From Isurus oxyrinchus (lineage: Eukaryota), in NCBI GenBank assembly GCA_026770705.1, contig JANJGN010000038.1:2356001-2420000 (forward strand): a stretch of DNA of 64,000 nt, given 5' to 3'. The stretch's first letter is position 1; each line of letters starts with the position of its first letter. A program made the translations under genes and the position numbers. Under the pieces are notes generated by a model. The model did not search any database, was not told the origin of the DNA, and was given only the letters and a program-made list of their open reading frames with translations. Below are positions 24,428-60,520 of the stretch, one piece after another.

Positions 24428-24431
24428 CTGT

Positions 24432-24474
<43 letters not shown>

Positions 24475-27950: not shown

Positions 27951-28029
27951 GCGTTCCTTAAAACGTTGCACCCAAGCAACTTTACGATTGGTAACTGGGA
28001 ACATATTTTCTGCTGTCGACCTTATCTCA

Positions 28030-33764: not shown

Positions 33765-33980
33765 GAACAGAATGAGACAAAAATGCTGGAAATACACAAT
33801 AGACCGTTCAGCATCTGTGCAGAGAAAACGGTAAAAGGTTCAGATCCATGACTTTACATCGAAGTTGGGGAATAGGTAGCAATGGAAGAGTTTTTGTTTT
33901 CACTATAGCGGCGGGAAACGGTTGTGATAAAGGGCTGATGATAAAGAAACATCAATGTAGGTTTGTGTTAATGTGGAAGA
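33765..33980 (-). mobile_element. Penelope-like tail fragment (counterpart of ~22000-22255)
   Basis: aaaatgctggaaatacac..cagcatctgtgcagag is the reverse complement of the PLE tail. Confidence 0.6.
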
Positions 33981-34135
33981 CAGAAGGGCACTTTGTGAGG
34001 ATGTTCCTCCAGAACAATGTCAGTGACCTTGAAGAGCTTTCTACTCCGTCAAAACAAAAATAATTTCCTGTCAATTAGCGTAATGATTGCAAAAGATCAA
34101 AGCGTCTAATTGTCTCCCTGGAGGCTGGCGTGAGA

Positions 34136-34142
34136 TATATAT
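34136..34142 (+). promoter_or_regulatory. TATA-like box of copy E
   Basis: TATATAT ending 51 nt before the ATG at 34193, the same spacing as in copy B. Confidence 0.55.
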
Positions 34143-34192
34143 GTGACTGTCTTTAGTTCTGGTGCAGAACACACTCGCAGCTGGTGACAGAA

Positions 34193-34262
34193 ATGCACGG
34201 ATTGCCAAAAGGTCTTATTTTCATCATATATTATCCCGTCATTGCAGCGATCGGGATTCCAG
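34193..34262 (+). pseudogene. GPR139-like GPCR copy E, exon 1 (MHGLPKGLIFIIYYPVIAAIGIP)
   Basis: 70-nt exon, phase-1 donor G|gttaag, 1390-bp intron. Confidence 0.88.
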
Positions 34263-35652
34263 GTTAAGTATTTTGGTTTGCTATGCTATTGAAATCATTG
34301 TTTAATCACTTCTCTTTGGTTTGCTTTCATTTTAGTGAATCATTGTTCGTATTTAGGAGCTTTGCTTCTACATGGTACGATATTCTTTCTCCCATTAAAC
34401 AGAACAATCTATCAACATTACGGCGACATCGTCCCAATTTATCACGCTAGACAATGTCACTTTTTTCCACTTCAAGGGAAATGCTTAATTTAATTCTCCA
34501 TTTTAGCAACACAATTGTTTTCTTTTACTGACATGATTAGTCGTCATCACATGCCGAGTCGCTCAAGTTTGTCTTTGCCATTTCTTCCCTTGAACATAGT
34601 TTCTCCCCAATACAAGAATAATAGTTCAGCAGTAACAATGCACTATCTTCCGTGAGCTAGTAACATTTAGTCAGTTTAATTGGATACTTTCATCTGTTTA
34701 CCGCCACCGTTCGAGGTTTTAGATGTTCTTTTATTTTATTCTTGGTATTTTTAAAAAGCGTAATGTATAACGCTGTTACCACTGAGGAAATGTTTTTCTA
34801 TTGTTTCAACGGCATTGTCACCGTGGGTGAATTATTACAGAGGAACTGTATCTGTACTATGCACTATCTCATTCTTTTCCCTTTAACCTTTCGTTGGAAT
34901 ATAAACAGTATTTATCTGATAAATCTGTGCAGAATATTAAATGACTGGCCCAGGGTTTCTTACCTTAGCGGAAACCTGGCACCCTGAGCAGCGAAGAATT
35001 CTCAGGGAGCTGAAGTTGGACTTTAATCCAGGACATTTTGACTCTAAAGCTTGACGTCTTTCAATTTAACAGCAAGTGAACCTTAAACTGTGTGTGGATT
35101 TCCACCCTGCTGTGAAGGACAGTTGTGTTTGCTGCACGTCATCATAACTCAGGAGTTCTAGTTACCCTTTATTTCCTTCCAAAGGAGTTTTTTTTTCCAT
35201 TCTTTCTGTTCTCATTTGCTGGATTATGCCCACAAGAGTAACACTTTGTATTTAATTCCATTCAACGCCATCTACTCAGTTTCTGTCAAATTCTTAGGTC
35301 GATTTAACATTGTGTACCTTTCTTTTTCCAATGTCCTAGCCTGTTCTTCTCTAAACAACAAGCAAGAGGATACTATACTGTTTTTCATTTAACTGAGTAA
35401 CAATGCAGCAATTTGAATATTCACTATAGGACTGAGCCCCCATTCTTCCTGTAAATCAGCACAGTATTGACAATTTGCTGCATTTTGGAATGAGTCTTTC
35501 TTTCTCCGCTGGAGCATATAAGTCATAGGACTGAAATGGGAACATTGCTCTCTTTTCATGACCAATGCTGTATTTGTGAGTTTCTCAACATTTTCTGTTC
35601 TATATTCATTTGTCCCCACCGCAAACTTACTGGTTATATTCCTCTCCCACAG

Positions 35653-36556
35653 CTAATTTGGCAGTAACTGTGATCCTGTCTCGAGGAAGATGCGGTCTCA
35701 TTGGATGTATCACATACTACCTGATGTCCATGGCCGTGACGGATCTCCTGATCATGATCCTTGCTCTGATGTTAAACCGGATTGTAGGTACATATTTCCC
35801 ATTCAGTTTCCTCTCCATCACTCCGGCCTTTGCTCTCAGTCTTGTGTTCATATATGGCGTCAGGGATTCTTCTGTCTGGGTGACAGTTGCTTTCACCTTT
35901 GATCGATTTGTAGCCATTTGTTGTCAGCAGCTGAAAACCAAATATTGCACCAAGAAATCAGCAGCTGTGGTCATAGGAACTGTCTGCGTTGTGCATTGTG
36001 CTAAAAGAATACCCTTGTACTTTGCTTGTGAACCTTCTGTTACCACGGACAATACACCCTGGTACTGCAAACTGAAGCCAATATATTATTTGTCACCCGG
36101 ATGGGTGGTATATGACAGCATGAATGCCGTTTTAACCCCTTGTCTCCCATTCGTTCTTATTTTGCTGCTCAATGTTCTGACGGTCAGGCACATTGTTGTG
36201 GCCAGTCGAGCCCGCAGAAGACTGCGAGCCTACAGCAAGAGCGAGAAACAAAGTGACCCAGAGATGGAGAAGAGGAGAAAGTCCATCGTTTTACTCTTTG
36301 CCATCTCGGAAGTTTCATCCTGTTATATTTCCTCGCTCTTAAAACTTTCCTCTACGCACGAATTGCCAGCGTTAGTTATTTCGATGGCTCGAATTTCAAT
36401 CAATCAAATATAATAATGGAGGAATGTGGACTTATGCTGCATCTTTTAAGTTCCTGCATCAACCCCTTTATTTATGCAGGTACCCAGAGTAAATTCAGAG
36501 AGGAGTTAAAGAATGGTGTGAAATATCCATTGAGTCTGATTGTTATTTTTTTTTAA
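35653..36556 (+). pseudogene. GPR139-like GPCR copy E, exon 2, with a 1-nt deletion at ~36308 (could be an assembly error)
   Basis: Acceptor cccacag|ctaat. Open to LLFAIS, where tcggaagt replaces tcgggaagt. The shifted frame continues SFILLYFLALK..NPFIYAGTQSKFREELKNGVKYPLSLIVIFF to a stop. Confidence 0.88.
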
Positions 36557-37514
36557 ATGATGAAAGCAGTGAAATCCAACATGAATTCTACATTATACCC
36601 CACCCATTGCTGTTGCTCTACATGTTACATATGGCTTCAACCCGCAGAAACAGAGTTACCTCCTGTCCGAGGTGTGAATTCAGAATTATATAACTAACTC
36701 TGCATTTTCCCAGTTAGTTTTTATTTTTTGTCCCCTTTCCAGAGCGGGCCTGGTACATTCCCAACTGTCCCTAAGGTCCCGGGGTGTCTCGACGTTCATG
36801 TAGGAGACAAAGTGTCCGACAAAAATGTATAACTTGGCAACAAAGTTTCACTATTAAATGTAGGAACCTTGCTATCTCCCCTTCCTATGTTTTGGAACTT
36901 GATGGTAGATGGCGCCCTGAAATGGAAACGGACACTGTCCCCACCCATTGATCTATATTGAGCAGGCTCCGCTTCACACTTGAACTCTTTTTCCCATAAA
37001 CATAGCAAGAGGGAACTGGAATATTACAGACACAGATAAAGGAAACATTTTGTTCGCCTTTTCCATTTGGCAATGGAGGTGAAATCCGCAGAGTCATCAT
37101 ACAATATAAGTTACACTGGCAACAATCTCCCCTTTTAAATGATTACAAATCGCAACTGGCCAGAACAAAAAAAAACAAATTTAATGGAAACATTATCTTC
37201 ACCATCCACAATGCATTATAAAAGTTTATTGCCATCCTGATACAGAAACAGTAATTAGAATGGAATTGTGGGTTACGCTTCACAATGACCCCCTTTCCCA
37301 ATCGTGGATAAATACCACACACTTGCTGTTATTTGGAATTTCCCGTGTCGTGACTTACAGCCACACCGAAAGTCTCAGGACTCAGCATTGATCTCAGCAG
37401 AAAATGCAATCCAAGGCATTCATGCTGTGTACATATTATCATTTGTTATGTCTTCCGATGTTAATTGAAACAAACCGATTGCTCTGCACTTTATAAGGGA
37501 TTTGTCTAAAGGAT

Positions 37515-37925
37515 TAAGTAGCAGAAAAATGCACATGTTGTAGAAGCTTATGCTCTTGTACTTATCAGGACAATTTGCAAGAGTAACGCCGATTTCAACT
37601 GAACAAAGGACGGGAGAGCCTGTCTCTGGCTCATGGCTTCATGAAATGTCTTGACCAATCAGAGTCAACATACTTGATTTGAATGTAAACAACGGTTGAC
37701 AGTTAACTTCCATTCATCAGGTCATTATCGCATTCTCTATTGCAACGCCACGAGTAATCCATTTTCACTCGCCCATCAATCATCACTCTCTTCTCATGAC
37801 GTTTTAAGTGTTGTTCCCTTTGATTTTTTTGTTACTCTTGCGAATTGTCCTGATGAGTCCAAGGTGAAAAGTTTCGAAAGCATGTGTCTTTGATCAGCAC
37901 TCTCACATTCTGTTCTACCGAACAA
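37515..37925. mobile_element. Penelope-like 3' end with inverted terminal copies carrying hammerhead-like cores
   Basis: 37531-37587 is the reverse complement of 37831-37887. CTGATGA..GAAA..TC core at 37850-37875. The body matches 62130-62385 and the reverse of 41850-42030. Confidence 0.7.
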
Positions 37926-37934
37926 CGAGTGAGT

Positions 37935-39310
37935 CCCACGTCAGTGGTCCGGAAACTATTGGAGAAAATTCTGAAGGAAAGAATCTGTCTTAACTTGGAG
38001 AGAGAAGGTTTGATAAGAGATATTCAGCATTGATTCTTTAGAGGTAGGTCATGCCTAAAAAATTTGACTGAATTTTTGAGGAGGTGACCAGGTGTGTACA
38101 TGATGGTAGTGCAGTTGATGTAGTTAATATGGATTTCAGAAAAGCCTTTGACAAGGTCCCATATGGCAGCCTTATAAATAAGGCAAATACACATGGGATA
38201 CAGGGTAATTTGAAAAGGTGGATTATAAATTGGCTTAGTTGTAGGAGACAGAATGTAATGATAGAAGGCTGCTTTGGTGACTGAAAACCCGAGTCCTGTG
38301 GTGTACCACAGAGATCTGTGCTGGGTTGCCTATTATTCATTATTTATATAAATGACATAGATGACTATGTGGGGAGTAGGAATAGTAAGTTTGCGGATGA
38401 CACAAAGATTGGCCGGTTGGTTTACAGTGAGGTTGAGAGGCTTGGGCTGGAGGAAAATATTGGCGTGGTGGTCAAATGGGCAGATAAGTGGCAGATGGAA
38501 TTTACCACTGAAAAGCATGAGGTTATACACTTTGGAAGGAGTAATTTGACAAGGAAGTATTCAATGAACGGCATGAGACTAGGAAGATCTGACGAACAAA
38601 GGGACCTTGGTGCATGTGTCCATAAATCTCTGAAGGCAGAGGGGTATGATAGTGGGGTGGTGAAAAAGGCATTTGGGACAATTGCCTTTCTCAATCAAGG
38701 CACAAATTACAAAAGTAGATGGGTCATGTTGGAGTTGTATAGAACCTTGGTGAGACCGCAGCTGGAGTGCTCTGTGCAGTTTTGATCGCCAAATGATAGG
38801 AAGGATGTGATTGTGCTAGAGGCGGTGTAGAGGAAGTACACGTGGATGCAGCCTGGGATGAACCATTTAAGTTATAAAGAGTGGTTGGATAGAGTTGGGC
38901 TTTTTTCGGCAAAGACTGGGGAGCGGCCAGTTCAAGGTGTACAAGCTTGTGAGGGGTATTGAAGGGGTGGATAGGGACAGCTGTTCCCCTTAGTCGAAGG
39001 CTCAGTCACGAGGGAACACAAGTTCAAGGTGAGGGGCAGGAGGTTTCGTGGGGATGTGAGGGAAAACTTTTTTAACCCAGGTATTGGGGACGGTCTGGAA
39101 TGCGCTGCCTGGGACAGTGGTGGAGGCGGGTTGCCTCACGTCCTTTATAAAGTGTCTAGATGAATACCTGGCACGTCCTAACATTCAAGGTTGTGGGCCA
39201 AGTGCTGGTCAATGGGATTAGTTAGGTAGGTCAGGTGTTTCTCACGTGTCAGTACAGACTCGATGGGCCGAAGGGCCTCTTCTGCACTGTGCGATCCTTT
39301 GATTCTGTGA
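37935..39310 (+). mobile_element. CR1 LINE, 5'-truncated RT to 3' tail
   Basis: AVDVVNMDFRKAFDKVP, YINDID..KFADDTK, LYRTLVRPQLE, and a 3' tail gatgggccgaagggcctcttctgcactgt..gattctgtga. Confidence 0.93.
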
Positions 39311-40579
39311 CTACTTATTAAATTTTCAATGAAATGATTGTCATGATTATAAACAGCAGAATCAAATCTCTAAATTCGCTGACCTATCAACAATTGAAGC
39401 GAATGACTGACTCTCTTCTCGCCTAAACATCGTTTTAATCATTTTATTATCTGAGTGAATGCACTTGAATTTGAAAGAATGGGACAACTGGCAATATGCT
39501 TCCTCGCTGATGGTGCAGGTGAACGATTTATTACCTGTGGAAACATTTCAATAAATCTCCAGCTGGGGTGGGCAAACGAATCCCTTTCTATGGTCCAGGT
39601 ATTGTCAAGGTTTGCTTCTGTAGAGTACGTCCTGTCTCTGCCCAGGTTGGTAATCCATTGAAATCTATTCCACAGACAGAAATGTTGCAGGGTCTCTCCC
39701 CATTGCAAATGCTGCAACTTCAATTGTAATTCTATGGAAGTGATTGCAGATCTTTGCATCGTCATTCCATTAGAAAACTCTCAGTTGGGTGCGTGTTTTA
39801 TTGTGCTTCCAGCAACACTGGCCTTTGAAATTAAATTCCACTGTCTGTATTGGCAAATATTGCTCCTTTTTTTTGTTTTACTTTCTGTTCTCCATTTGCG
39901 GGATCCCCTCTCGCTGTCGCCTGAAAGAATTGCTTTTGGATGGTTTTTAGTTTTGCATTTACCCAACAGCCTTGGAGGTCCTCTCCTGAAGATGTTGACT
40001 CAGAGGAAAAGCAGGATACATCCAGCTGCTCTAATATTTCCTATAATTCAGTTAGATCATGGATAATCTATATATAACTTGCATCTACCCACTTTAGTTT
40101 TATTCTCTTTCAATGGTTTTCCTGAAAGTAGTCATTCTATCTCATTTTCACATGTTCGATTGACTCCGATTCTCTTTGAATCTTTAGGAGAAAATGGTGC
40201 AGGGGCATGGTAACACAGTAATTATTTTAATGGACTCAAACACGAAATCCATTTTATTGATTCGCGACATAATTTAAGATCCCACAGCAGTGGCTAAAGT
40301 AGTTGAAATAAGTTCTCTAAATGCAACTGAAATTAAGAAGGCAAAGAAAAAGAAAAATGACACATCACGAATAATGACCATGAAAGTATATTCTTATCAA
40401 GAAGGAAAAAATTGCGTTCTGTTTCATTAATGCATCTTAGTGCAAGGATTGTGCTTTAGTTCCCCTGCTTGGAGAACATGTGATTCCAGACCCATGGAGA
40501 TGTATTTAAGTGATAACCATTGTCTGAAATGGTCGAGCAAGCCGCTATGAAACAAAAAAAGAAAAGTAACAGTGTGAGG

Positions 40580-41200
40580 TTCTTAAATACAGGGGCCGAA
40601 AGCGTTCACAGCACTCCAGGTGGGGCCCCACCGAATCCTGCATATTTGTAACAAGACCTCTCTATTTTTTAAACTGTAACCCCCTAGCAACACAGACCAA
40701 AATGCCATTTGCCTTCTTAATTACTTGTTACATTTGCATGTTAACGTTTTGTGCTTCGTACACAGGAACAATCAGAGTCTGCACGTTTTTGAAGTCTCTC
40801 TCCATTTTAATAATAGTCTGTCTTTTGATTCTTCCTACAAAAGTGAATGACCTCACACTTTCCAGCATTAAACTCCATCTGCCAAGTGTTTTTGCTCACT
40901 CACTCAACCTATCTACAACACCTTTTACATTCCTTATGTCCTTTCACAACATGTCTTCTCACCTATTGCTGTAGCATCAGCAAATTTGGATACATCACAC
41001 TCTGTCCGCTCCTCCAAGTCATTGCAATAGCTAATAAATAGTTGAGGTGCTAGGACTGATACTGTGGCACTCCATTTGTTGCGTCTTTCCAACGCTTCTG
41101 AAAAGGACCCATTAATCCAGACTCTTTGTCTCCTCTCTGTTATCCAATCCTCAATCCATGCTACTACATTTCTCTCAATACCACGGGCTCTTAACTTGTG
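40580..41200 (-). mobile_element. CR1 LINE RT fragment
   Basis: KLRARGIERNVVAWIEDWITERRQRVWINGSFS and VSKFADAT. Confidence 0.85.
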
Positions 41201-41204
41201 CAAT

Positions 41205-41328
41205 AAGTTCTGTCAAGTTCCCTCAAGTTCTGTCGAAGGGTCATGAGGACTCGAAACGTCAACTCTTTTCTTCTCCGCCGATGCTGCCAGACCTGCTGAG
41301 TTTTTCCAGGTAATTCTGTTTTTGTTTT
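41205..41328 (+). mobile_element. Short, young Penelope-tail insertion with a minimal hammerhead-like motif
   Basis: agtt-CTGTCGA-agggtcatgaggactc-GAAACGTC-aact followed by gatgctgccagacctgctgagtttttccag. Flanked by ttaacttgt on both sides. Confidence 0.7.
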
Positions 41329-41849
41329 TAACTTGTAACAGATGTTCCTCATCCCTGTCATTATTTCGAAAGCTATAAATTCCTTGCAAAATGTTCTTCC
41401 CAGAACTGGACTCAAATGCTCCAGCTGAGCCAAAACGTTCTTGTGTTTTTATCCTAGGTTGCTACTTATAGAATCAAACATCCTGTATGCCGATTTATAA
41501 ACATATGGGACATGTATTTTGCTCCTGCAATCCCATTACCATCATATCCTTTAATCGAGTTTTCTTATCCTTATTCTTCATTCAAAGATGATCCACTTGA
41601 CAGATAGCTACGTTAAAGTTAATCTACCAACTTGTATGCCCATTTTATAAATCTGTTTATGGCTTTTGGAAGTTCAGCACCCTCGTCACATTGGTTTGCA
41701 ATATTTCCAAGTTTTGTCACATCTGTAAGCTTTGAAATTATGTCACGTACACCCAAGTCAAAGCCATTATATATATCCAGAAAAAGGGTGCTGACACCAA
41801 CTCCTGGCGAAATCTTCCTCCAATTAGAAACATTTTTTGACTCGTAAGG

Positions 41850-42360
41850 TCACTTTTTAAGAATACCGATGTAAGAGGAAAACAGCAATTTATACTGCAT
41901 GTGAAGAGAGTGCTGATTGCTTGGCAAGTGGACTCCAGCAGAGGAATTGTCATGGAGAATGCACCAATTATGGCGACTGAAAGTTAACTCCCAAGCTTTG
42001 TTTGAAATTTTAGCTAGGCAGCTTGGCCTTGATTAGTCAATGCATTGCCTTGAGGAATGAGTCAGCGAATGGCTGTCACTTATTGTGTTTAGCTGAACCA
42101 GGCACAATGTGTGTGCATGTCTTTTCTGCTTGCAAAGAACAGGGCCCTGTGTATTAAAATATGCAGCGTCCAAATACATGCAAATGCAACATTCTGCAAG
42201 CCCAAATGATAATCTAAATTGGTTGTCAGCGTTATTCTTAGTGCAATTCATTTTTTTTAACAAATGTTCTCGAGTTCTGGAATCGCATCCAATGTTGAAC
42301 ACTGTAATTTGAGCTTTACCAGCATGGCCCGGCCGGTTGGATATGTTCTGTACTTTGCCC
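41850..42360 (-). mobile_element. Penelope-like element 3' end (GIY-YIG C-terminus)
   Basis: EHLL..NCTKNNADNQF....LDAAYFNTQGPVLCKQK resembles the C-terminal GIY-YIG segment of PLEs. Confidence 0.7.
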
Positions 42361-42361
42361 G

Positions 42362-42855
42362 TTTCGAGGTTCATTGAGCAGCAACATTTGGATGATTTAC
42401 GCCATTTAGAAACATTATATTTCCCTTTCTTACCGCCAAAGTGCACAACTTCACATTTGTGCACTTTGGGCTCCGATAGGAAGTCCATCTGTTGCCCTCT
42501 CCCTTAAGCTTTCGACATCAACTTTCAGCCTCCTTGTGTTCACCTCACAGCTTGCACCCGCACCTAGCATTGAATCGTCAGCAACTCAATTATTTTCCAG
42601 GTCTTTTCCGAAGTGATTAATGCAAATTGTAGCTGAGGCCATCATTGAAAGTTGCGGCACTCCACTGGTGACAGCCTGCCAGCCTGAAAGTGCCCAGTAA
42701 ACCGTATTATTTGCTTCCTCGACATTGACCGATCTTCTACTCATGCTAATGTATTCACTTCAAACCCATGAGTTATCATCTTACGAACTAACCTTTGTGT
42801 GGAATCTTGAGGGATTTAAGTTCGAAGTCCAAGTCTATGACATCAACTGGTATCT
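42362..42855 (-). mobile_element. Old CR1 LINE RT fragment
   Basis: KCEVVHFGGK in ORF 42033-42488. The reverse of gtccaagtctatgacatcaactgg encodes VDVIDLD. Confidence 0.65.
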
Positions 42856-45324
42856 AAAAGGGGGCAAAAACGATGTCACTATCATAACCCATGAAGATCC
42901 TCCCCAATCATAGCATAAATCTATTAATGAGTTGTTCAGAATTCTTAACAATCGATTCCCACAGTTCCTGGTGACCGAAGAAAGGCTCACTGTATTTCTG
43001 GTCGACATGTGGCATTTGTTTTTACCATCTCTCTCTGTTGAAGTGCAAATAATGTCTGTCTCTCCAATTCCAAACATCTTCCTACAGCTTATCTTCTTCA
43101 GGTTTTGCAGTCGACCATCTTCAACAGCTTTGTTTCCTCCACAAATTCGGCCATTGTTGTTTTGTCATCGAGCTTCGGGTAATTATTAACGGCATTAAAA
43201 AAAGGTTCAAATAAGGAGACTGTAGGATATCCACTTTAACAGCCCCTCAGGCCAATTCATCTCTGTATCCATGCCTTATAGGCACTATGCATCAACATGC
43301 TAGTAACCCCTTGAAAAATATATCCACTGATTCCAGCAACTGATTCCTTGATGAACTACGTACAAGGACTAAAAAAGCCAAGGGTATCACATCTATTAAA
43401 TGGACCCTACCTAGTGAAGTTTAATGATACAGACTCCCTTTCATGAACATATATCGACTATATATTGAGATAACTTTACATCCTTCTGTTCCATGGCTTT
43501 ATTTGCAGCAACGGTTGCACAGCATTACACACTCTGAACATCAAACTCATTACTTTGTACTTTCCTGGATCAAATTTGCATCTGCTTTTCTGGAGCACCA
43601 ACCACTCTTTAATAGTCAGGGCTTTCTCTTTGATTTGTGTGCGGCACCCTGCAGGTTGCTTACGTATTTGCATAAGGAAGCTCGATTAAATTTAAGTGGC
43701 CACTTAGGTCGACGAATCAGAATTGAATTTTGGACAGCTGTTCATCAACCATGTTGATCGCAATGTGACCTGAGTCACAACGATTCTCTGACACGCTCTA
43801 TAAAAAAAAGTCATTTTTTTAATCCATGGAGATGTTTTAAATATCTGCACGAAATTCGCCTATTCCCACTTCTCTACTAACAGTGAAAGAATATATTTCT
43901 GGGTCGCAATTACTTTTGATTGAAAATTTGTCTGTCTCAATATTCCACACCAATAACATGAAAAAAATACAGTATCAATTTATTGTGCTCTCTTCGGAGA
44001 GTGTTTCTATATGCACGAGGAAATGCTGGACACATTTCCTCGGCTGGATAACATCTCGGGATTGAGAACAAAAAAACAGTTAACTGTTTCAGGTCGATGA
44101 GCTATCAACGAAACTGAAAAGTGTTAGGGGAGTTTTATGGACGTGCTGATTGGACTTTCAGTCAACATGCGTGGACTATTCAGTGGACATATTCGTGAAA
44201 AATTTATCTTGGAACATTTAATCAGTTGAAATTTCCCAATCATCTGCAAATGTTGCGGCATTTATCTCAATGGGAATTCCTTGATTTTTGAAGCACGACC
44301 ATTCTGGATGACCCCGAGTCTTAATCTCATTTAAGATAATAATTTCCAACCAGTAGATTTCCTCGGCTTAATCTTCCTACCAAATTACACCACTTCAATC
44401 TTGTTCAGAATCAAATTACTTTGCCATTTATCCTCACGAGTTTTTGATATTCTTGCATTTGGTCACATTTATCCTTAGCATAAGCAAAACCTCAGCCCTT
44501 CCTAAATGAGCGTGGTACGCAAATGTTTTATACTATACTTCCCAACACTGAGATCAGCTCATTCAAGTCCATTGTGGTAAATGGTGGCTAAAGTTGCTAT
44601 CCCCATGGGTTATCGCTCCTACTTGGCACCCGTAGTAATAACTATATTCAATTCCTGCGCTCGGCTTTTCTTTTCTGTTTGTTTTATTTTGGTGGGAGCG
44701 GTTAAAAAACCACTGGGGATATCTGGACTTTTTAAGTAAGTTATTCATGGTGACCTGTGTATGCACAAGCTGAACACGTGGTAGAAGCAGACTGGATAAT
44801 ATTTCTTCCAAAAACGAATCACTATTTAGAAAGGAAAATAAATTACTATGAGAAAGAGCATTGGAACCGGACAAATGGAATAGCACTTTCAGGAACAGGA
44901 ATAATGCGTGTACTGGCCTCCATCTGTGCAGTGCAATGCTAAGCTTTGTTATCCATTTAGCTACCGCAAAACTGAAATAAAATATTAATAATTTTATCCT
45001 CAATTAAATAAACGGCTATAAAATGGTAGGCAAACGTGCACAAGTCAAAAAAGCAATGGCCTAAACATAACAAAAGGCACTGGATGCTGAAGACGTGAAT
45101 GTTCCGATGAAATGGCGTCGCCGTGACACCTTGGCTTTCCATCTTTCTCCTCGTGAGTGTTATCTGTTTCTATGTAATAACAGGTACTTTCACATGGATA
45201 AATTCCAGCTTTATTCTGACATCACATAATTTTTAATGTATTATCTGATTTCTTGTCGTTATTTTTTTTTTGCTGAGATTAATTGAGGTTCCCATTGGCC
45301 AACCCCTCGGTAATATCCGTGTAG

Positions 45325-45452
45325 ATTCCACAGACCACATCTGGATTGAAGGCTATGAGGACGATAACGGAAACATCTGGACAAAATCTCTAACATTCAT
45401 CGTCCTGTTCTTCCTGAGCATTTTCGACAGCATTGCCGTCACTCTGGTAAAG
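45325..45452 (+). pseudogene. Orphan immunoglobulin heavy-chain transmembrane exon TM1
   Basis: Acceptor gtgtag|at and donor aag|gtgaga. Encodes DSTDHIWIEGYEDDNGNIWTKSLTFIVLFFLSIFDSIAVTLVK, matching the membrane-Ig pattern (acidic spacer, N.W...STFI.LF.LS.FYS..VTL.KVK). The conserved Tyr is replaced by Asp. Isotype (IgM/IgW/IgNAR) is unresolved. Confidence 0.88.
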
Positions 45453-45592
45453 GTGAGAAGATTCAATCCACTCATGCTACAATCTGACAGAAGCGGTCTG
45501 AAAATTTTCTAAACATTTCAACAATTAAAAGTAATAACATAAATGCACCTGATCATAAATATCTGCTTCATTATTGTCTCCTTCTTTTACAG

Positions 45593-45601
45593 ATGAAGTG
45601 A
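45593..45601 (+). pseudogene. IgH TM2 exon (MK*) followed by 3'UTR
   Basis: Acceptor cttcttttacag|atgaagtga, 140 nt after TM1, giving a KMK* tail equivalent to the canonical KVK*. Confidence 0.8.
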
Positions 45602-47046
45602 TCGGTTGAATTTGGACCTCGTAGCTTTTCCTCAGCTGTTTTTTCAGGTCTCTCTATTCCAATATAAAATCTGTTCTCTTGGTGATTCTAAAGGTGAAAT
45701 GTCTTCACTTTGTGATCCCGAATCTGTAACCGAACCTGTAGCAGTATTTCCGATTTCATGTATGAAAGGTGTGAGATGAAAATGGTTGTAATGTAATTGT
45801 AGCATCTAATTTCCCTGGAGTTAGGATTTGAATTGTAATTAAGTAACGTTTTCATTCGTTATTCGTTATTACCCCCTTCCCTTTCCTTTAAGCCTCAGTT
45901 TTCTCTTTCTGATCTATGTTCCAGTGGTACATACAATTTACCAAATCAGAGCGCATGTGTTCTGTTCCCAACGTGACCTCAGGCATTATATTCACTTCTG
46001 TTAACTTTAAAATAAACTTTCTTGTGAAATATTCTCTGATATTACTAATAAAATGGAATGAAAAGTGGACTAACTGTGACTTTGCTGGATTCCTTTCTCC
46101 AAGGCCCATTCACACCGCTCCATTTTCCCTATTACACATTTCTCCCAGTTTTACCAGTCTTGTCTGGGATCTGTTTGCACCGAAGACCTCATTGGGCCAC
46201 CCATCGCTCCATCCGTGTAAGGAGACCTTTACCTCTGCCTGTTTCTGGCTATTGCCCGAGGTGGAATGATTGAACAGGGAGGGTCACCTCGGTGACTTCA
46301 CTCTGGGCGGTCACAGACACATGTCTGGCAATTCTAAACTGTAGGGTTCGGCTTCAAAGGAGGCTGATATAGGACAGGAAATTGGAGCAGAAAACATCCT
46401 GTAAAATACCCCATCAAACACTCCCACCGTTGGTGCAATCAGGGTCAGAAAATTGTTCAAGATCCCTCTGCAATGTCCGATTAAACACTTTGAAGTGGGG
46501 ATGCCACAGGCTAGATATATAACACAGGCAGAATACGGAGCACAAACCAAGGGATGTTTCCAGGGGCTGGGGCGTGTCTGGCACTGCTGTATTATTAAGT
46601 ACAAATCCTGCAAATTATTACATAGCATTAGGTCTATTGGACATACGGGGGTGGGGGGTGGGGGGGGGGGGGGGGGGGGTGCGGGGTGGGGGGGGGGGGG
46701 GGGGTTCAAAACCGCCAAAATACTCAAAGATGGGGTCCAACTTTATGCTGCAAGTAACCATAAACATGGGGCTTGTTCACAGATCCTGGGGCCGATCGGA
46801 TACTGAGACACTGGCTTTCCATTTTCTCTTAAATACACAAACAGACGCAGCCTGCACCTCGCCCTGCCACACCCCTTTCCGTTCAGCATATACATGGTCC
46901 TTATTCCAGTAAACACAGGCCGACTCTCCACTTCCACCTTTTCTGTTAAATCCATTAGCGCTGTCATTCTCCCTTCTGCTTTGATAATGAACTGTATTCC
47001 TGATCAGCTCATTCCTACTGATACCATCTCCCTGAACTCGCTGGAC

Positions 47047-47277
47047 ATCACCCCAGGGGTGAAAACAGAAAACGCTGGAAATATCAGCAGGTCTGATAGA
47101 ATCTGCAGAGGCAGAAACAGATTCTCGATTCGGTATGACCCTTCCTCAGCTGAACTCGAAAGGTCAACTCTGTTGCTCTCTCCTCAGATGCTGTCAGGCC
47201 TGCTGAGTTTTTCCAGCAATTTTATTTTTGTTTCAGAGTTCCAGCATCCGCAGTATTTTGCATTTATCACCCCAGGG
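47047..47277. mobile_element. Palindromic mini-element made of two inverted Penelope tails, with a 12-bp target-site duplication
   Basis: atcaccccaggg at 47047-47058 and 47266-47277. The left arm aacagaaaacgctggaaatatcagcaggtctg mirrors the right arm caggcctgctgagtttttccagc. Confidence 0.8.
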
Positions 47278-47599
47278 ATTTCGTTCTACCTGCCTCATCG
47301 TTTCGTCAGACGAAACTTCAGAGCCTCCCGATCACGGGAATAACAGCAGAAGTTTCTCTTCATATCTTGCTATCTTCCAATATCATCCATCTGAAACTGC
47401 GCCACTTTTCTCCAATTCCTCAGAGTTCAGGCGTGAGGTTCCATGTTGTTGAATAAAGGAAGGGTTAGGCAGAGAAAAATTACCTACACATCTTCAAGAC
47501 TCGGAATGATATTTATGAATGAGTGGAGTTTTTGCTTAAACCCTGTCTCTCTCCCAATCTCTCTCCCTTCCTCTACCGCAAAGCCCATCAGGACATCTG

Positions 47600-47845
47600 A
47601 ATCAACAACAGAAAAAGTTGGAAAATCTCAACAGTTCATAAAGCATCTGTGAAGAAAACCACAGGGTTAACGTTTCGAGCCCGCATGATTCTACTTCGGA
47701 GTCTTCTTATCTGAACAAAAGTCATAAAGACTCAAAACGTTAATCCTGTCTTTATCTCCACAGGTGATGTTGGACATGCTGAGGTTTTGCAGCATTTTCT
47801 CTTTTAGTTTTAGATTTCCAGAAACCGCAATATTTAGCTTTTACT
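47600..47845. mobile_element. Second palindromic Penelope-tail mini-element
   Basis: The left arm acagggttaacgtttcgag mirrors the right arm ctcaaaacgttaatcctgt. Same architecture as 47059-47265. Confidence 0.7.
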
Positions 47846-47959
47846 GTTCAGGACTTCCCTCCTCTCATGGCTGCATTTTTTTTAACCGCTGTCATTGCAC
47901 ATGGGATTTGGGAGTGGCTTATTGATGCAATATAATGGGGATAAAACAGTAAGGCAGAT

Positions 47960-48840
47960 TATTATTTAGAAATCTGCCATTCTCTGCTTTAAACATACTC
48001 AATGATTGTACTTCCACAGCTCTCCGGGATGCAGAAATACAAACATTCGCAAACCACTGAGTAAAAAACAATTCTCCTCATGTCAGTCCTAGTGGCTTTA
48101 CCCTTATTTTGAAATTGTGTCCCCTGTTTCTAGATTCCCCGACCAGGGGAAACATCTGACCTTCATTTACACTTTCTTCCATTCAGGTGTTTTGTTTGTT
48201 ATAATGAGATCTTTTTGCTCATGTTTGGAAACTCTGGAGAAAACAGGTCCAGTGTCCCCAATCCTTCTTCACAGGACAGTCACGCCATCCCTGATGCAAA
48301 TCTGGTGAGCCTTCGATTCACTCCCTCAATAACATTGACTCCCTTCCGAATGTAAGGGGGCCACACCTGCACATTGTACCCCAGGGGTGGCCTAACCAAG
48401 ATTATATACAAAGGAAATGAGAATTCACTATGGCTGTATTCAAATCCACTTGTGAGAGAAGCTAACATTCTTTTCGCCTTCCTAAATGCTTCATATGTAT
48501 GCCAGGTTTCAGAGACTTATTGATGAGGGTACACAGGCCCCCTTGTACAGCTACATTTTCCAGGCTCTCACGTTTTATGAAATAATCTGCACCTCTGTTG
48601 ATCCTACCAAGCTGGTTAACCTCACATTCTTCCACGTTAAATTTCATCTTTCCTGTTCTGTCCCCCTCACCAAGTCTGTCCAAATCGCCTTGAAACCGTT
48701 TTTCACCTTCCTCACAATACGCGTTCCCACCAAGCTTTGTGTCATCCTCGAACTTGGAAATATTACATTTGGCGCTCATATCCAAATCATTCATGTGTTG
48801 TGAACAGCTGGCTCTCAAGTAGTGAGCCTTCCAATTGCCC
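47960..48840 (-). mobile_element. CR1 LINE 3' fragment
   Basis: ISKFEDDTKLGG, FQGDLDRL, LVRPPLGY.VQVWPPYIRK. Confidence 0.88.
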
Positions 48841-49758
48841 ACTGGCCAGATGCTGACAAAGTTTGATATTTCACTCTATACTCCATCACCCCCACCACCC
48901 CCACCCCCACAACAAAAAACACACACGTAGGTCGCCGGCGCCCCTCACCCCACACCTCACACTTTGAAATGACATGCTTCAGTTACTGCTGCAGCAGCAG
49001 GAGTCCTTTGGATCACGTAAGAGTGTCACAACACTGATGGAAGCCCTTGAAGCATTAGTCTGTTTCTCGCTACACAAAAGTAGCGAGGGCTGCTGATTAT
49101 TCCCAGCATTGCTGTTTTTTATTTCAGTTCCGAGCACATTGGCCTCCCCTCTCTCTCCTCTCCTGAACATACTTTTTCCAGATGAATTCAGGGGACATTT
49201 GAATTGACGAATTTCACTGGAACATAACTTGTGCAGTGGAAATAAATCTTTATTTGAAACGAGGAGACTTCCCGCTCCGAGATACTGTGACTGTTCAGCT
49301 CTAAAAACACTGGAATAAAATCACAGAAAGATTTTGAAAAGCTGCAATCACTGACTTTCGAACCTCTGAAACCCACCCTCCCATCTGCAGGTTGGTCTGA
49401 AATGTTTTGAACAAGATTTCCCTGTGATGCTGGAGACACTGCAGCATGTCCGCCCCTGGACTGTCACCTGCCCAAGTGGCCTTATCCTCCAAAGCCCCTT
49501 TCGATAATGACATGGAACTCGAGCCTGGTGGGTGGGAATTTCACACACCAGGCCCAAGGACAACAGGAGAGTTGGAATAGCCAGGAAACCAGCAGGACAA
49601 ACAGGACTGAGGTAAATTACTTCCCAAATGCACCGTTTCTGTTAGTCATTGAATCCTGGCGGTGAAAGATGAAAACTGGCCTCACCCTGTGCTCATCACC
49701 GAGGTGAAGAGATTGGGAATAAAACAGGGTCAACTCGTATTGATAATGGATATTCTTG

Positions 49759-50660
49759 TCACTGTTTAATACATTTAAAAATTACAGAAAAGGGATATTT
49801 CACCACATTCTTCAGCTCATTTCTGAATTGAGTCTGGGTCACTGCATAAATGGCCGTGTTAGTGCAACAACTCAGGAGCTGAAATATAAATCCCAGTTCC
49901 TGCACAAACCTAGGAAGGTATACAGGAATAGCATCTAACACATATAGCCTATTACAAACAGAATTTATCATAAAAACTAACCACAACAGGATAAAATTCC
50001 CCGATATAGCAAACAGTAAAATGATGGATTTCCTGCGTTTCTCCATCTGTGGGTCCCTGGGTCTCTCCCCACTGCAGTGAGCCCGGAGTCTCCTGCGGGC
50101 TCTGCTCGACACTAAAATATATCTGACAGTTAAAGCGTTCAACATCAAAATCAAAACAAATGGCACAAATGGTGTTAAAATATAATGAAGACATTCGATT
50201 GCTGCCCACATTGATGAGAATTCAGCATCCGTCACTAATGTGCAAAACCAAGGAGCATTGGAAAGCGAATAATGACCTACATACATAATATACCAGAATG
50301 AATCCTTCACACAGAATAGCAGACTGACTGTTCCGAGAACCACAGCCGCCGTATGCTGGGTGCAATATTTTGTTTTCAACTTCTGGGAACAAATAGCCAG
50401 AAATCTATCAAAGGTGAAAGAGACTGTGAACCAGACAGAACAATCTGTGGCTGCATAAAGCAGGACTGCATGGATATTACACACTTTAAACCTCCACATG
50501 AACTGAAACTGAGCCCAGTAAAGAATAGCAATTTGCCTGAATATGAGATCAAGGATAACGACCAGTAGATCCGCGGTTGCCATGGACACCAGGTAAAGGG
50601 AAACACATTTTGAGAGACCGCACCTTCCCCGAGACAGTGTCACAATAGTCAGTATGTTCC
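49759..50660 (-). CDS. GPR139-like class A GPCR copy F, exon 2 (intact; 332 aa with exon 1)
   Basis: Acceptor ccttacag|ggaac. Open frame with RGRCGLSKCVSLYLVSMATADLL, CSVWFTVSFTFDRFLAIC, LTPFVPFVLILMLN and CTNTAIYAVTQTQFRNEL. Confidence 0.93.
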
Positions 50661-51399
50661 CTGTAAGGAAGAGAAAGGCAGGATAGTTATTTAACTTAGA
50701 GCAAATGTTACAGACTGATGGAGTGACATTTGAACAGAGTTATCCAAGGTCAGAATCTAATTACTTTACCAATGTTTGAGCTTTACGCTGGAGGGAGTGT
50801 TTCGAGTTAAACACCATCCTGTTGTAGCAGGAAACCAAATCCTGCAGCAGGTCTCATCGCCACTTCCCTAAATTATTCATGGAATTCGGAGTGAAAATCA
50901 CTCACCCCATTATTAGTCCTGCTCAATATCCCATGAACATGCTGCAAACTGCATCACAACGATATGTAAGAAGGGCTGTGATTTGTACTGAAGGAAAGTG
51001 GTTCATTTATTTTTGAGAAGACATTTGAGTGGAACATTAAGGTTGTGTAAAGAAGTAAATACAGATTTGAATTCAGAAATTGTATTTCAAATCAGGATGT
51101 CCAAATGTGCCTTCCTGATAATTATTGCCTTCGCCAAAAGGCACAATGAACGTTTAGACTGTATCCCAGTAACAAATAGACTCTCGAAAAGAAATAAAGA
51201 ACAGGGAGGTAAATGGATCGCTAGACTGAAGAAAATAAATTAGAGATTGAATCAGAGCTGGCCAACACGAAGGAACAGCAGAGAGTGGCAGCACCCAAAA
51301 TTCAGGCTGGCTAGCAGGAGAGAATTTACCAATGGATCTAATGTCTGTGTTTTGGGCCAGGAATTAAATGGGCCAGTGGTTGGGAAATGAAGTTGTTAC

Positions 51400-51900
51400 A
51401 TAAGAATGCAAGAACTAGGAGCAAGAGCAAGCCATATTTCTCTTTGGTCAACTCTAATGTTCATTAAACCCATGGCCGTTCTTCGAATTCTACTATCCAA
51501 AACTATCCCCATTTATCTTAATGGCCTTAGAGCACAAAAATCTACCGACCAACAGCCCTCGAGAGTTAATAATTCCGACGTTTCTCCACTTTCTCAGTGA
51601 AGAAGATTCTCTTCATCTCAATTCCAAATGGCCAACATTTTATCTCAGGGATCGAGTTCTCGACTCCCCACCTAAGGGAAACATTCTCTCAGCATCAATG
51701 CTATGAGGACACTAAATTATTTTGTATGACTCGATGAGATAATCACACATCCTCTAAATTTAAGAAGATGCATGTCAAATTTGATTGATTGATTGATTAC
51801 TTAAGTATATTTTTCCTTAGGCAAGAAGGCCAAAACTGTACACATTAATCGATATGTTTTCTCACCAATCACATGCATAATTCTATCAAAAGTTCCTTAC
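51400..51900 (-). mobile_element. Old CR1 3' fragment inside the copy F intron
   Basis: cataagaatgcaagaactaggagcaagagcaagcc is a reversed CR1 tail, followed by degenerate CR1 sequence. Confidence 0.55.
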
Positions 51901-51949
51901 TCGAATACAGGGAAGACTGCCATTTATTATCCTATTCACTTGCTATATT

Positions 51950-53180
51950 GCTGTATCCTAACCTCATTACAGCTTTGTTTCAAACATGGAAAAAGGAGCT
52001 GAACTCCCGGGGGGAGGTGAGAGCGGCTGCCCTTGACATCAAGGCAACATTTGGCAGAGTGTGGCATCAAGGGCCCCTAGCAAACCTGGAGTCAATGGGA
52101 ATCAGGGGGGAAATCTCTGCTGCTTCGAACCATACCTAGCAGAAAGGATGATGGTTGTGTTTGTTGGGGGTCGATCATCTCAGCGCTAGGACTTCACTGC
52201 AGCATTCCTTCAGGGTACTGTCCTCGGCCCAACCATCTTCAGCTGCTTCATCAATGACCTTCCTTCCATCACATAGTCAGAAGTGGGATGTTCGCTACTG
52301 ATTTCACAATGTTCAGCGCCATTAACGACTCCTCAGGTACTGAAGTAGCCCATGCTCAAATGCAGCAAGAGCTGGACAATTAGCAGGCTTGCGCTGACAT
52401 GTGGCAAGTATCTTGTGCACCGCTCAAGTGTCAGGCAATGACCATCTCCAACAAGGGAGAACCCAACCATCGCCCTTTGTCATTCAATGGCATTAACATC
52501 ACTGAATCCCCCACTATCAAATCCTGGGGTTTACTATTGACCAGAAACGGAACTGAACAAGCCATATAAATACTATGGCTACAAGAGCAGATTAGAGGCA
52601 AGGAATAGTGCGACGTGTAACTCACCTCCTCACCGCCAAAGCCTGTCCACCATCTGCAAGGCACAAGTCAGGAGTGTAGTGGAATGCTCCTCGCTTGCTT
52701 GGATGGGCGCAGCTCCCAGAACGCTCAAGAAGCTTGACACCATTCAGGGCAATGCATCTCGCTGGATTGGTAGCACATCCAAAAATATTTACACACTCCA
52801 CCACTGTTGCATAGTAGCACCAGTGGGTGCCATCTACAAGATGCACTGCAGGAACTCATCAAGGCTCTTTCAGCTGCACGTTCAAACCCCGACCACTACC
52901 ATCTAGAAGGAGAAGGGGAGCAGACAGATGTGAACACCACCAAACGGAAGTTCCCCTTCAAGTCACTCACCATTTTGACCTGGAAATATATCGCCGTTCC
53001 TTCTCTGTCGCTGGGCCAAAATCCTGGAATTCCCTTCAGAACAGCACTCTGGGTGCGCCTACACCCCGAAGACTGTAGCAGTTCAAGAAGGCAGCTCAGC
53101 ACCACCTTCACAAAGGCAACTAGTGATGGGTAATAAATTCTGGCCCAGCCAACGAAGCCCATTTCCCATGAATGGATAAT
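51950..53180 (+). mobile_element. CR1/L2-group LINE RT fragment with 3' tail (in the copy F intron)
   Basis: ALDIKATFGRVWHQG, QGTVLGPTIFSCFINDL, LDTIQG, IYKMHCRNS, and a tail ending cccatgaatggataataataa. Confidence 0.9.
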
Positions 53181-55921
53181 AATAACACATATTGCATGTT
53201 AGCTTTCTCTAGATTGTGTACCCGAGCAGCCAAATTATGAAAATTTACAATTTTTACCAGTTTCTCGACTGTTTAAACGCTGGATGAGGATAGAATGAAA
53301 CTCGTCTGTGTTATTATCTCAGGGAAACTGAAGATTCTGGTGCAATATTAACACAGGGCTTTGATGCATGTTTAAATTAATATGTCAGATAATTCATAAA
53401 ATTAATGGTCCTGGCCTCCTATTTGGTGGCGATACTTGGATAATCAGCGCTGATTGTAAATGTAATTAAAGCCGTATCTTTTTCCACCCTTGCAGCTTGT
53501 TTTTCTTGCCTCCATAGCGGGGTGGGGGAAATGAGCTGTGTACGAGGTGCGTAGATGGCGGGTGGTCAGCAGTTGGGATGGGGATGGGTGAGTAGTTAAT
53601 GTGCTTTGCAGTCGGTTGGGGGTTGAATGGACGGGCGATGGCTAGTGAGAGCTGTGCAAGTGGATCGAGGGGAAGGCAATCGAGTCAGATTAGATATTCT
53701 GGGGTCAGTAGTTGGGGGTGTTGTGGGTTGTTGTGTGTGGGATGAATGTGGGAGTTCTGTAGGTGGGGGTTGGGCGTGCATGGGCTTTGCTTGAAAGTTA
53801 TTCACTGACACATGCTAGAAATTAATAGCGGGAAAATACTACGCCAAGCATCTGTCACACAACAGGCACAACAGTCCAACACTAAAGTCAGTATTGGAGT
53901 CATTGTTAGAGGGGCCTGGGCAATACAAATCTGCCCATCTGAAGTTTAAAGTTCATGGGAAATTACCATGCATGCTCCTGGATCAAGATTTCAGATCGGT
54001 CCTGATATGCAGAGCAGCAGACATTGCAATATTCACCACTGTTGGCATCAGGAGTTCCGGTTAATGATATAGTCAGTATTAATTTCACGGCAATGGACTC
54101 CAGACACTAGCTGCAGATAGAGGGAAATTACACAAGAGCGAAATGGAGATCAGGTCAAAGAAGGCTGGCTTAGGGTGAATAACAATAAAGAACACATTTT
54201 AAGAATTATCTTAAAGGATGATAAGTTTGTGGCGAGGACAAAGGATTTAGGAGGAAATTCAGAACATGAAACTCTTAATACTTCATTGTGGTCACCCATG
54301 CCAAAGGCTGCAGACATGTCGACAAAAGGGAGGAGAGGCAGCTCGACATTAGCAGAGTCACATAAGATATAATTTGTGCCTTTGCTAAGGACGGTGTAAG
54401 AGTTGTAATAAGGTAGAAAAATGGTTAGAAAGATTTAAGCATGGTGTCCCTGGAAGATGGGGCAGAAACGTGGGGGGTAGCAGCAGGGACAAGGAATTTG
54501 TAGAGGAAAGAGAGGTTAGAGATGGAGTGTTTGCTTACAAAGACTGAGGCAACAGGGGTTGCTTATTTACAAGGGCAGGGGTAATGACTACAGAATGGAG
54601 CAGCAAAGAACAGTGGCTAAGCAGATGGAACTATTAACTATATCAGCAACTGAGGAACATGATGAGGAAGTTCGGTGTTCAGCAGTTTGGTGGGAGTACG
54701 GTGAACCAGTCCGCACCAGCAGCCACCCCTCCACCCACACCCTACACCATGCCTCCCACCAACCCAATCAAACGCCTGGAAATCTCACATCTGAAACATA
54801 ATGGAATGCTCACTACTCATCAGTATGGTTATCAGAGCAACACCCAATAAGCAGAATCCCCTTCAATAATTGAATAGATTTTCCATCAGTGTCCGTCCAT
54901 CATTAAACTTGCTATTTCTCCACCTCCACCTCTGTGGATGAAGGAAGAATGTCTACAGAATCAACTACAACAACACACCGGGGCTACTTCGACAGCACGT
55001 ACCAGCACAGCAAAATGCAGAAGGTGTGCAATGCCGTGAGATTGACCTTCTCTAACGCACCATCCTGACTTGGAACGGTAACATCTCCCTTCATCAGCGT
55101 TCCGGAATTCCCTAACAGCAGTTAGGAGCACAGTCAGCAGAGGGAATACTTCAGCTCAGCAAGAAGACTCAGCACCAACTTCTCAGCTCACTTCCGGATG
55201 GGTAATAAATGGAAGTTTGTCACAAGCATCCATTTCCCAAGGACACATTTTGAAAAAAAAACTTTGAGAGGGGGATAATGATTTGCAGCTCTAAATAACG
55301 TCATGCAGAGACAAGGGAAGGGAATTAGGTCTGTGGACAGAAATGGGAACGGAGCCAATTGTTGGTGAGGGGAGCAAATATTGTTGAACAATTATTACAT
55401 TTTAAATTCTCTCCTAAATATCTAAATTTGGTTATTGTTAGGCAAAGCGGGAGATGGTGGAACGGAATTTGCCTGGAGCTGAATTATTATGTGAGATCTT
55501 CCCTCGTTCCTGTCTGCCCTAATTTCCGCAGATCAGTGCAAATTACTATCTGCGTCGCACTGCAAAACCAATACCTGCGCAACATATTCTGCTCAGATAT
55601 TGGGGTTCAGTTTAAACAGCAGACTGCAGCTGTTCAATAGCTATAATTCATCACTAATATTTATTGCATAAAATATTATACCAGCCAAATTCTGAAGAAA
55701 AAAATCATTTGAAGCAAGTCTTGAGATATACAAACGGTCCAATGAACTGTGAACAGTGAATCAGCAACTGCTGAAATGCTACTTCACAGAAGCACAGGGC
55801 ATTACATGTCACAGGACACAAGAATTACAGAGAATAAAATTAATTAACTTACGTTAAGGGCAAGGACAACAAACATGGTGAAAGATGTTTTATAAAATAA
55901 GTTTCTAAAATAATCACTCAC

Positions 55922-56018
55922 CAGAAATGCCAACAGCAGCGAGGAGCGGATAGTAAATCGTTTGCAAATCATAAATCACCCAGACAATCCGAAGTTCAGT
56001 TGGAATTTCAAAGAACAT
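55922..56018 (-). CDS. GPR139-like GPCR copy F, exon 1 (MFFEIPTELRIVWVIYDLQTIYYPLLAAVGIS)
   Basis: IYYPLLAA motif and phase-1 donor G|gtgagt, joining in frame to 50660 (GGG AAC). 5261-bp intron. The start is uncertain; the first in-frame ATG was used. Confidence 0.82.
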
Positions 56019-56281
56019 GATCTCATTTGCTGTGAGATCCAATGATCGCTGTTTATACTGGCGACCACACTCTGTCAAACACTGATATACACATTGAAAA
56101 CATTGCCTAGATATAGGCGGAGGAGAGTCCTGGTGATTCAATTAAACAATACACTGGCTGGCATTAATTACAGTCACTTAACAAACAAGATGCCTTAACC
56201 CTTTCATCCCATCACTTTGTATGGAAAAAATATACTAAAAACTACATGGCATTCCTGTCAAGATAATTTATTCAAAGCAAG

Positions 56282-56293
56282 CACGTGACGTCA
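56282..56293. promoter_or_regulatory. Overlapping E-box (CACGTG) and full CRE (TGACGTCA)
   Basis: cacgtgacgtca about 265 bp upstream of the copy F ATG. Motif match only. Confidence 0.35.
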
Positions 56294-56599
56294 GCCACTT
56301 TTGTGATAAACAGGTTATGGAATTCTGCAGGCTTGCAGCACAGATAAGAAAAGAAAAACAGACTCAAATCCAGAGCTTTGATTATTCCGGAGATAAAATG
56401 CTGCCAAACAATTTCATGGTTTCAATTAATTTCTCAGGGGATGAACACAAGTGCCAGAGTATGGTCAGAAGCAGTAACTGTCCAAAAGGATGCATAGTTG
56501 ATCATTGTCTAGTGATCAGAAAGGGAAATAGTAGACTGATGATTTGAAACTGCTTGGTTTAACAGTAAACGTAAAACTGATGCTATGGATCAACAATTA

Positions 56600-57160
56600 C
56601 CATGGAAATGATATGAGAGTTTAACTTTAAAGCTGACCTGGAAAATGATGCCCCGTTGTAACTAAACCCTGTAATTGAAATCCATGGAATATTAGTGTCC
56701 ATGTGAATGACACTACACAATCTAAAATGACTTTGTACCTGATACCACGGACTTACAGTGACCATGCAACTAATACCTGGTCATACAGTGCTCATTTGAA
56801 TTATGCATAGGTCCATCAGTGGGCTTCCTACAGATACTGTTGTCAAACGGTGACCATGGGATTGAAATGTGGTATCCTATTCGCCTTGTACCCGAAACTT
56901 CGCTGTAACTGATAATCGAGTACAACAGTGACGTTGTAACTGATATCCCAATCTTACATTGACCATGTACATGACATTCCAGTCTATCAGTGCTATTCTA
57001 ACTGATAATTCAGTCTAACAGTGGCTTTGTACCGGATACCCCAATTTGAACGTGAATATGTACCTGACGCCCCGGTCTAACTCTGACCTTGGAACTGGTA
57101 TACCAGTTTAATAGTAAATTTGTACCTGATACTGCGGTGAAAAATTCACCTTCTGTTACC
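56600..57160. repeat. 31-bp degenerate minisatellite
   Basis: Units such as gtaactgatatcccaatcttacattgaccat repeat at 31-bp spacing, clearest at 56905-57150. Confidence 0.85.
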
Positions 57161-60404: not shown

Positions 60405-60520
60405 ATGTGGTTGTGTGGGTACGTGCGTGTTTGCGTGTGTGCAAGTGCGCCGATGTGTGTACGTGTGTGTGTTTGTTTGTGTAGCCTCTTTGACAAGTGC
60501 CTGTGCGCATGCCTGCCTGT
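60405..60520. repeat. Degenerate (TG)n microsatellite
   Basis: gtgtgggtacgtgcgtgtttgcgtgtgtg... Confidence 0.7.

Follow-up and report, generated by a model that had tools for sequence, protein, structure and literature searches.

The closest described systems to the locus analyzed here are the TM1 and TM2 exons of elasmobranch IgM miniclusters, of which horn shark membrane IgM (P0004), a bamboo shark sequence (P0005) and a cluster from the same genome (G000:C38:2574198-2592938) are examples. Sharks also have IgM pseudogenes, and the number of their clusters can reach about 200 (PMC5192425, available part). According to the accessible portion of PMC12227049, elasmobranch IgH clusters are in linkage with TCR alpha/delta and are interspersed with V exons of the TCR type. 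In rabbit, an IgD (C-delta) remnant carries non-functional TM exons with potential splice sites; this single locus has decayed in situ and shows a frameshift as well as remains of CH2/CH3 (PMC5568218, text available in part). As for the TM residues, Y18 and S19 are placed in the mIg homodimer interface and not in direct contact with CD79, and Y18F disrupted assembly with CD79 (BCR), as far as the available text of PMC9860311 goes.

Here, we consider an orphan TM1-TM2 pair in a 64-kb stretch of shark DNA (the whole stretch analyzed, referred to as the window). Like the IgM minicluster, the orphan has a 128-nt phase-1 exon, a 140-nt intron, a two-codon TM2, a 3' UTR and a poly(A) signal. Unlike the minicluster, it is without V, D, J and C exons, the IgM intron gives way to other sequence 20 nt ahead of the exon, Y18 is changed to Asp and the exon is not conserved relative to its flanks. 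As in the rabbit IgD remnant, the heavy-chain gene is lost and the TM exons are largely intact (PMC5568218, in the part available); what sets the orphan apart from the rabbit case is a sharp truncation, its amplification and a frame that has stayed open in 30 of 33 copies. As in the complex described in the available text of PMC12227049, IgM and IgNAR-type clusters with interspersed TCR-type V exons are found around the window. Neither 'orphan' nor 'pseudogene' is used anywhere in that paper's main text, and its available parts make no mention of orphan TM exons. Among the papers listed in literature searches, none was found to describe IgM TM exons stranded in this way in sharks.

We consider it very probable that the pair is a relic without function, left behind by a single deletion or rearrangement, that was multiplied as a passenger of segmental duplication and now drifts neutrally. 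It should be noted that IgM pseudogenes and remnant TM exons as such were already known (PMC5192425 and PMC5568218, in their available parts); what is added here is a probable IgM TM relic that was amplified by segmental duplication. The features are collected in Table 1.

Table 1 Positions of the features in the window, and breakpoints of the other orphan TM classes.
Feature	Position	Strand	Remarks
GPCR-rich segmental duplication carrying the exons	3063..62113		83-97% identical blocks on C20, C26, C38
Nearest same-strand gene: rhodopsin-family GPCR exon	35650..36553	+	Frameshifted here
Non-IgM upstream flank	41330..45305		Searched parts full-length only in the 33 units
Candidate ATG-to-phase-1-donor mini-exon, 46 nt	45107..45152	+	In frame with TM1; not hydrophobic
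Invariant block, 35 nt	45135..45169		Identical in 33/33 copies; spans candidate donor
Entire IgM-derived segment	45306..47108	+	83% identical to C38 IgM TM region
TM1 exon, IgM-derived	45325..45452	+	Phase 1, 128 nt, open, 42 codons
TM1-TM2 intron	45453..45592	+	140 nt as in IgM, GT..AG
TM2 coding part	45593..45601	+	Met-Lys-stop; Ile-Lys-stop in IgM and most copies
Poly(A) signal AATAAA, IgM-inherited	46011..46016	+	Present in 32/33 copies
Orphan TM classes, breakpoints	L116-L118 about -480; L115 -560; L100 -2550

Identity of the exon pair

An earlier note on this DNA had described orphan IgH TM1 and TM2 exons with intact splice sites, and this description holds: an acceptor AG (45323-24) and a donor GT (45453) enclose TM1, a second AG precedes TM2 across the 140-nt intron, and the translated tail reads K-M-K-stop. 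The changes of FYS to FDS (Tyr to Asp) and of TAST to KSLT that it reported are also present. In the residue numbering of PMC9860311, TM1 differs from IgM by Y18D, T4K, A5S and S6L and retains S15, S19 and T23. The polar core of a functional IgM minicluster (S15/Y18/S19/T23) is incomplete here, with residue 18 being Asp in 32 of the 33 copies and Asn in the remaining one. The suggestion that these polar residues act in CD79 association can be kept in part: the Y18F effect speaks for it, but Y18 and S19 point towards the mIg homodimer and not towards CD79 itself (PMC9860311, available text). As even Y18F still disrupted BCR assembly in that study, the Asp variant would probably be defective.

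The similarity to Ig TM exons on which the earlier reading stood or fell is there, as the best six PDB matches of the TM1 peptide are all membrane IgM (best E 3.4e-4). Pfam gave no family assignment for TM1 and a word-indexed protein search with it returned two candidates, neither of them significant. The full representative protein search yielded five matches, four of which are the shark IgH sequences P0005, P0020, P0022 and P0023; the Asp substitution is absent from these four. Compared with the C-linked IgM TM1 at G000:C38:2592813, protein identity is 81% and 114/128 nucleotides are identical. Local alignment gave a score of 168 against IgM, versus 51 and 53 against the IgW/IgNAR-type TM exons of the other sampled heavy-chain clusters. 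A TM-exon phylogeny, which the earlier note had proposed for assigning the isotype, places the orphan exon among the IgM TMs: with 9 of the 33 copies included and a midpoint root only, these nine group in a single clade (100/100) whose sister is C38-type IgM (99/96). The reference C38 cluster (V-CH1-CH4-TM), located 173-192 kb downstream of the orphan exons, was itself typed as IgM on the basis of CH4, which matches named shark IgM chains with 83-89% identity. The orphan also has the architecture of IgM-type descent, namely a phase-1 TM1, a short intron and a two-codon TM2 followed by a stop. Judged from sequence, the isotype of the orphan pair is IgM.

Truncation ahead of TM1

A stretch of 464 kb around the window (G000:C38:2156001-2620000) was assembled and scanned, reading through stops, with C1 and V profiles made from the same genome. 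In agreement with the earlier note, no C exon was found in the 64-kb window (C1 profile, best E 2.6), and neither V nor C exons were found on the + strand over 245 kb upstream. Within that distance, the V-D-D-J and CH1-CH4 that precede the TM exons of a functional IgM minicluster on the same strand were thus not found. Elsewhere, the C1 profile detected decayed, frameshifted and partial C exons (E 7e-11, 8e-7).

IgM homology breaks off 19-22 nt (about 20) ahead of TM1. In the other direction, it continues for ~1.8 kb downstream, ~1 kb beyond the poly(A) signal. When two parts of the upstream flank (44300-45300 and 45020-45300) were searched genome-wide, full-length matches were restricted to the 33 units and no parent locus of the flank was found. 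The junction is also crossed, with 94-97% identity, by DNA contigs from organism A (runs X1 and X3) and is thus not an assembly artefact. The extent of the IgM homology indicates that the truncation arose at the DNA level. A processed (retroposed) pseudogene was considered and rejected, because the intron and ~1 kb beyond the poly(A) signal have been retained.

The earlier note's decayed IgH cluster can therefore be accepted as to the IgH relic, which is IgM, but not as to decay in place: there is a sharp cut 20 nt before the acceptor, and the orphan exons are the outcome of this truncation followed by segmental amplification. We propose that a single DNA-level event removed V-D-J-C and joined the IgM TM cassette to unrelated DNA, as the shared junction and the single clade would suggest. 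Segmental duplication then multiplied the cassette together with the GPCR-rich block.

Copies and the duplication block

Among the best 40 of 230 candidates scored for the exon region, 33 are full-length genomic matches (86-100% identity). The upstream 1 kb was found in the same 33 places (36/36 candidates scored), and the 45020-45300 query also gave 33 full-length matches (33/33 scored). The copies are mutually 90.1-99.96% identical over 2.7 kb and form 28 groups at 99.5% identity, so a few copies may be allelic. All 33 assembled copies have the same IgM/non-IgM junction. The long flanks of six other copies consist of blocks of window 3063-62113 (86-97% identity), and no C exon was found in the flanks read for these six. 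The duplication block is located in the IgH/TCR region.

These 33 copies were overlooked in the earlier reading, as was the fact that its KMK tail, a variant of the IgM KIK, occurs in only 5/33 and its KSLT in 13/33. The other alleles at the TAST position are KSPT (3 copies) and IAPT or TAPT (16 copies), and the stretch is lost in one copy. The GPCR and LINE (RT) neighbours that had been reported are indeed present. Of the six copies examined for the nearest same-strand GPCR exon, one has it fully open, and in its behaviour the duplication block as a whole resembles duplicated DNA in decay. Related rhodopsin-family GPCR exons, several of them broken, are found among the TM relics at 3032-3946, 17972-18928, 23542-26332, 35650-36553 and 49762-50739; we take this array to resemble the GPR139 group.

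Variation among the copies

In the 33 orphan copies, 34 of 128 exon sites are variable, as compared to 301 of 1026 sites in the intron and 3' flank (OR 0.87, p=0.54); the exon is thus not more conserved than its flanks, as that of a functional minicluster would be. For 13 C-linked IgM loci, the corresponding numbers are 23/128 and 442/975 (OR 0.26, p=1e-9), where it should be considered that this control covers deeper divergence than do the orphan copies and was taken without L108, which is decayed and has a broken acceptor. With CpG-aware flank rates, 23 non-synonymous changes were counted versus 28.7 expected (P 0.17), and 14 synonymous changes versus 10.7 (P 0.19). Across the copies, TM1 shows one stop (about 1.1 expected) and two indels (2.1-2.8 expected), and 3/33 copies are broken.

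Some points argue against a relic, namely an N/S ratio below 1, the open frame of 30/33 copies and the unchanged splice dinucleotides, and the invariant block and the X7 contig described below also count on that side. The ratio is 0.55-0.65 at kappa 2-4 (p 0.09-0.20) and 0.46 at kappa 1 (p=0.026), the flank kappa being about 2.6. The IgM-linked set, however, yields the same ratio, and the test is thus weak in power. All of these selection measures are pairwise and variant counts and, as the copies are related, the counts are not independent. The survival of splice sites and frame is probably owed to the low divergence of the copies, at 0-10%. The intact splice sites, offered earlier as a sign that an upstream gene could capture the exons, thus provide no such evidence, as 0 changes at 6 positions across 33 copies compare with 1.4 expected (P=0.24). 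No upstream gene with an extracellular domain that could make use of the exons was found, and we give such capture low odds.

The presence of Asp in 32/33 copies would be accounted for by one early single-base change; the Tyr-to-Asp substitution may have occurred once, on the stem, and been inherited thereafter. Since C domains are missing and Y18 is lost, a passing transcript that splices into the exons would likely give a product that is sterile or unable to form a BCR. The shared junction, the long homologous flanks, the neutral-level variation and the broken copies are the marks of a relic, and the IgM identity, the copy number and the single clade are equally matters of observation. At the resolution of the variation tests, the TM copies drift.

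If so, shark IgM miniclusters would repeatedly lose their V-to-C sequence with the TM exons left behind, and TM pieces would spread with large duplications in the IgH/TCR region. Counting TM exons then overestimates the number of IgM genes, with 33 copies from one class alone, and in young duplicates an open frame and intact splice sites should not be read as evidence of function.

Transcripts and alternative explanations

Contigs of presumed RNA came from five runs (X6-X10) of organism B, which may or may not be the source species. Among the contigs listed over TM1, IgM alleles are carried, and one contig is joined to the end of CH4. In one X7 contig (presumed RNA), an IgM-type TM1 is joined at its acceptor to a non-Ig exon whose donor is canonical; immediately before the joint, there is an in-frame stop. 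The non-Ig exon type has 99 genomic matches (canonical donor in 5/5 copies viewed) and is likely a non-coding first exon of neighbouring C2H2 zinc-finger genes; one exon of this type lies at L097:7292-7317 (G000:C38:2323292). The contig raises the possibility, in our view a very unlikely one, that the TM1-TM2-poly(A) unit serves as a terminal-exon trap for read-through from neighbouring zinc-finger or GPCR genes, the resulting transcripts being non-coding and having no selected function. The nearest same-strand copy of the exon, beside C2H2 zinc-finger exons, lies 78 kb ahead of the orphan TM1 but closer (26 kb) to a second orphan, L100, and no genomic copy was found that matches the exact TM1 start of this single contig, so that its class is not assignable. 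As this contig demonstrates, foreign exons can be caught by certain TM acceptors, with a predicted non-coding product. Such trapping is compatible with the relic model rather than a replacement for it.

A bolder alternative, which we consider very unlikely, is that the deletion created a fusion of an ATG mini-exon with the IgM TM, that is, a micropeptide gene of ~30 copies that modulates BCR or TCR assembly. Spliced to TM1-TM2, the mini-exon would encode a 60-residue single-pass micropeptide with an intramembrane Asp, perhaps a TM partner or decoy of antigen receptors. Indeed, the in-frame upstream donor that a captured anchor calls for is found here: the candidate GT at 45153, 172 nt upstream of TM1, gives a joined 60-codon frame, and the three-exon frame is open in 28/33 copies. 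By chance, however, about 4% of window positions have such a donor within the 60-500 nt ahead of them. The block over the donor is the longest invariant run in the 2.6-kb alignment (next-longest 21 nt; scan-wide p=0.014) and, in a genome-wide search, its motif is confined to the 33 units, but it reaches 17 nt into the intron, beyond the needs of splicing. Retention of Asp and of the poly(A) signal, each in 32/33 copies, would fit a micropeptide, yet TM1 is unconstrained and the mini-exon has six amino-acid-changing codon variants (one being a stop, in 2 copies) versus two silent ones. Purifying selection on the joined mini-exon/TM1 frame was not detected, the power being limited.

The 15 codons plus one base of the mini-exon correspond to the geometry of a V-gene leader exon, but the mini-exon is not hydrophobic and its best score against 67 V-exon upstream regions was 44, with a null maximum of 54. 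Its reading as a V-leader relic, supported by geometry alone, was rejected. A low-depth X5 contig spans the candidate donor unspliced. Among the X6-X10 contigs listed, no junction from 45152 was found, which does not speak for silence of the exons. If true, the micropeptide explanation would mean that a gene family was born from an antibody membrane anchor, and its effects on receptor assembly would be directly testable.

That the exons anchor a distant Ig/TCR-like gene, or a rearranged V placed upstream by tandem duplication, is hardly credible. The region does mix IgM and IgNAR-type clusters with TCR-type V exons, and in 2/33 copies a same-strand TCR-like V is found at a distance of 33-35 kb upstream. 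Against this, the 245 kb ahead of the present copy are free of V and C exons on this strand, the upstream sequence read in six further copies contains no C exon, the V is downstream in 23/33 copies and the TM exon is without constraint.

Other orphan TM classes and neighbouring immune loci

Besides the relic considered above, three or more further orphan TM families were found, each with its own breakpoint (Table 1). L100, a second orphan IgM TM1, is located at G000:C38:2349576, 6.4 kb ahead of the window. It is sister to L108 (100/99), in which decayed CH1-CH4 are still present and are followed by sequence homologous to the window start, and the two form a natural before-and-after pair. A further orphan TM1 is present on C20 and C26 and was deleted from the window at about 9370, where its 3' flank remains (9370-10275).

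At L152 (G000:C26:32312490-32314440), a leader-VH(stop)-J is joined about 560 nt ahead of an IgM TM1-TM2, with all C exons deleted. This locus lies within a TCR V array, and similar TM matches were found at three other places. Contigs of the presumed-RNA run X6 contain the L152 intron end and a TM1-to-TM2 splice that matches the L152 TM2.

The + strand of the window has, at 63415-63759, a TCR alpha/delta-like V exon that is open and bears a 23-spacer RSS. We take its RSS heptamer to be two bases off the consensus. The exon has 24 copies (95-100%) and lies 15-21 kb downstream of the TM unit in 23/33 copies; an intact leader was not seen by eye. A second V, which is broken, follows after another 3 kb. 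On the opposite strand, 140 kb ahead of the window, L086 (G000:C38:2211789-2216003) carries a light-chain-like pair, namely a V exon whose leader is intact and, 4 kb beyond it, a single C1 exon with a frameshift.

Among the database sequences, the bamboo shark gene model P0022 reads V-CH1-TM, suggesting that internally deleted IgM clusters occur in other sharks as well. P0011, entered under a bacterial name, is 91% identical to shark IgM CH4, and its bacterial label likely reflects contamination.
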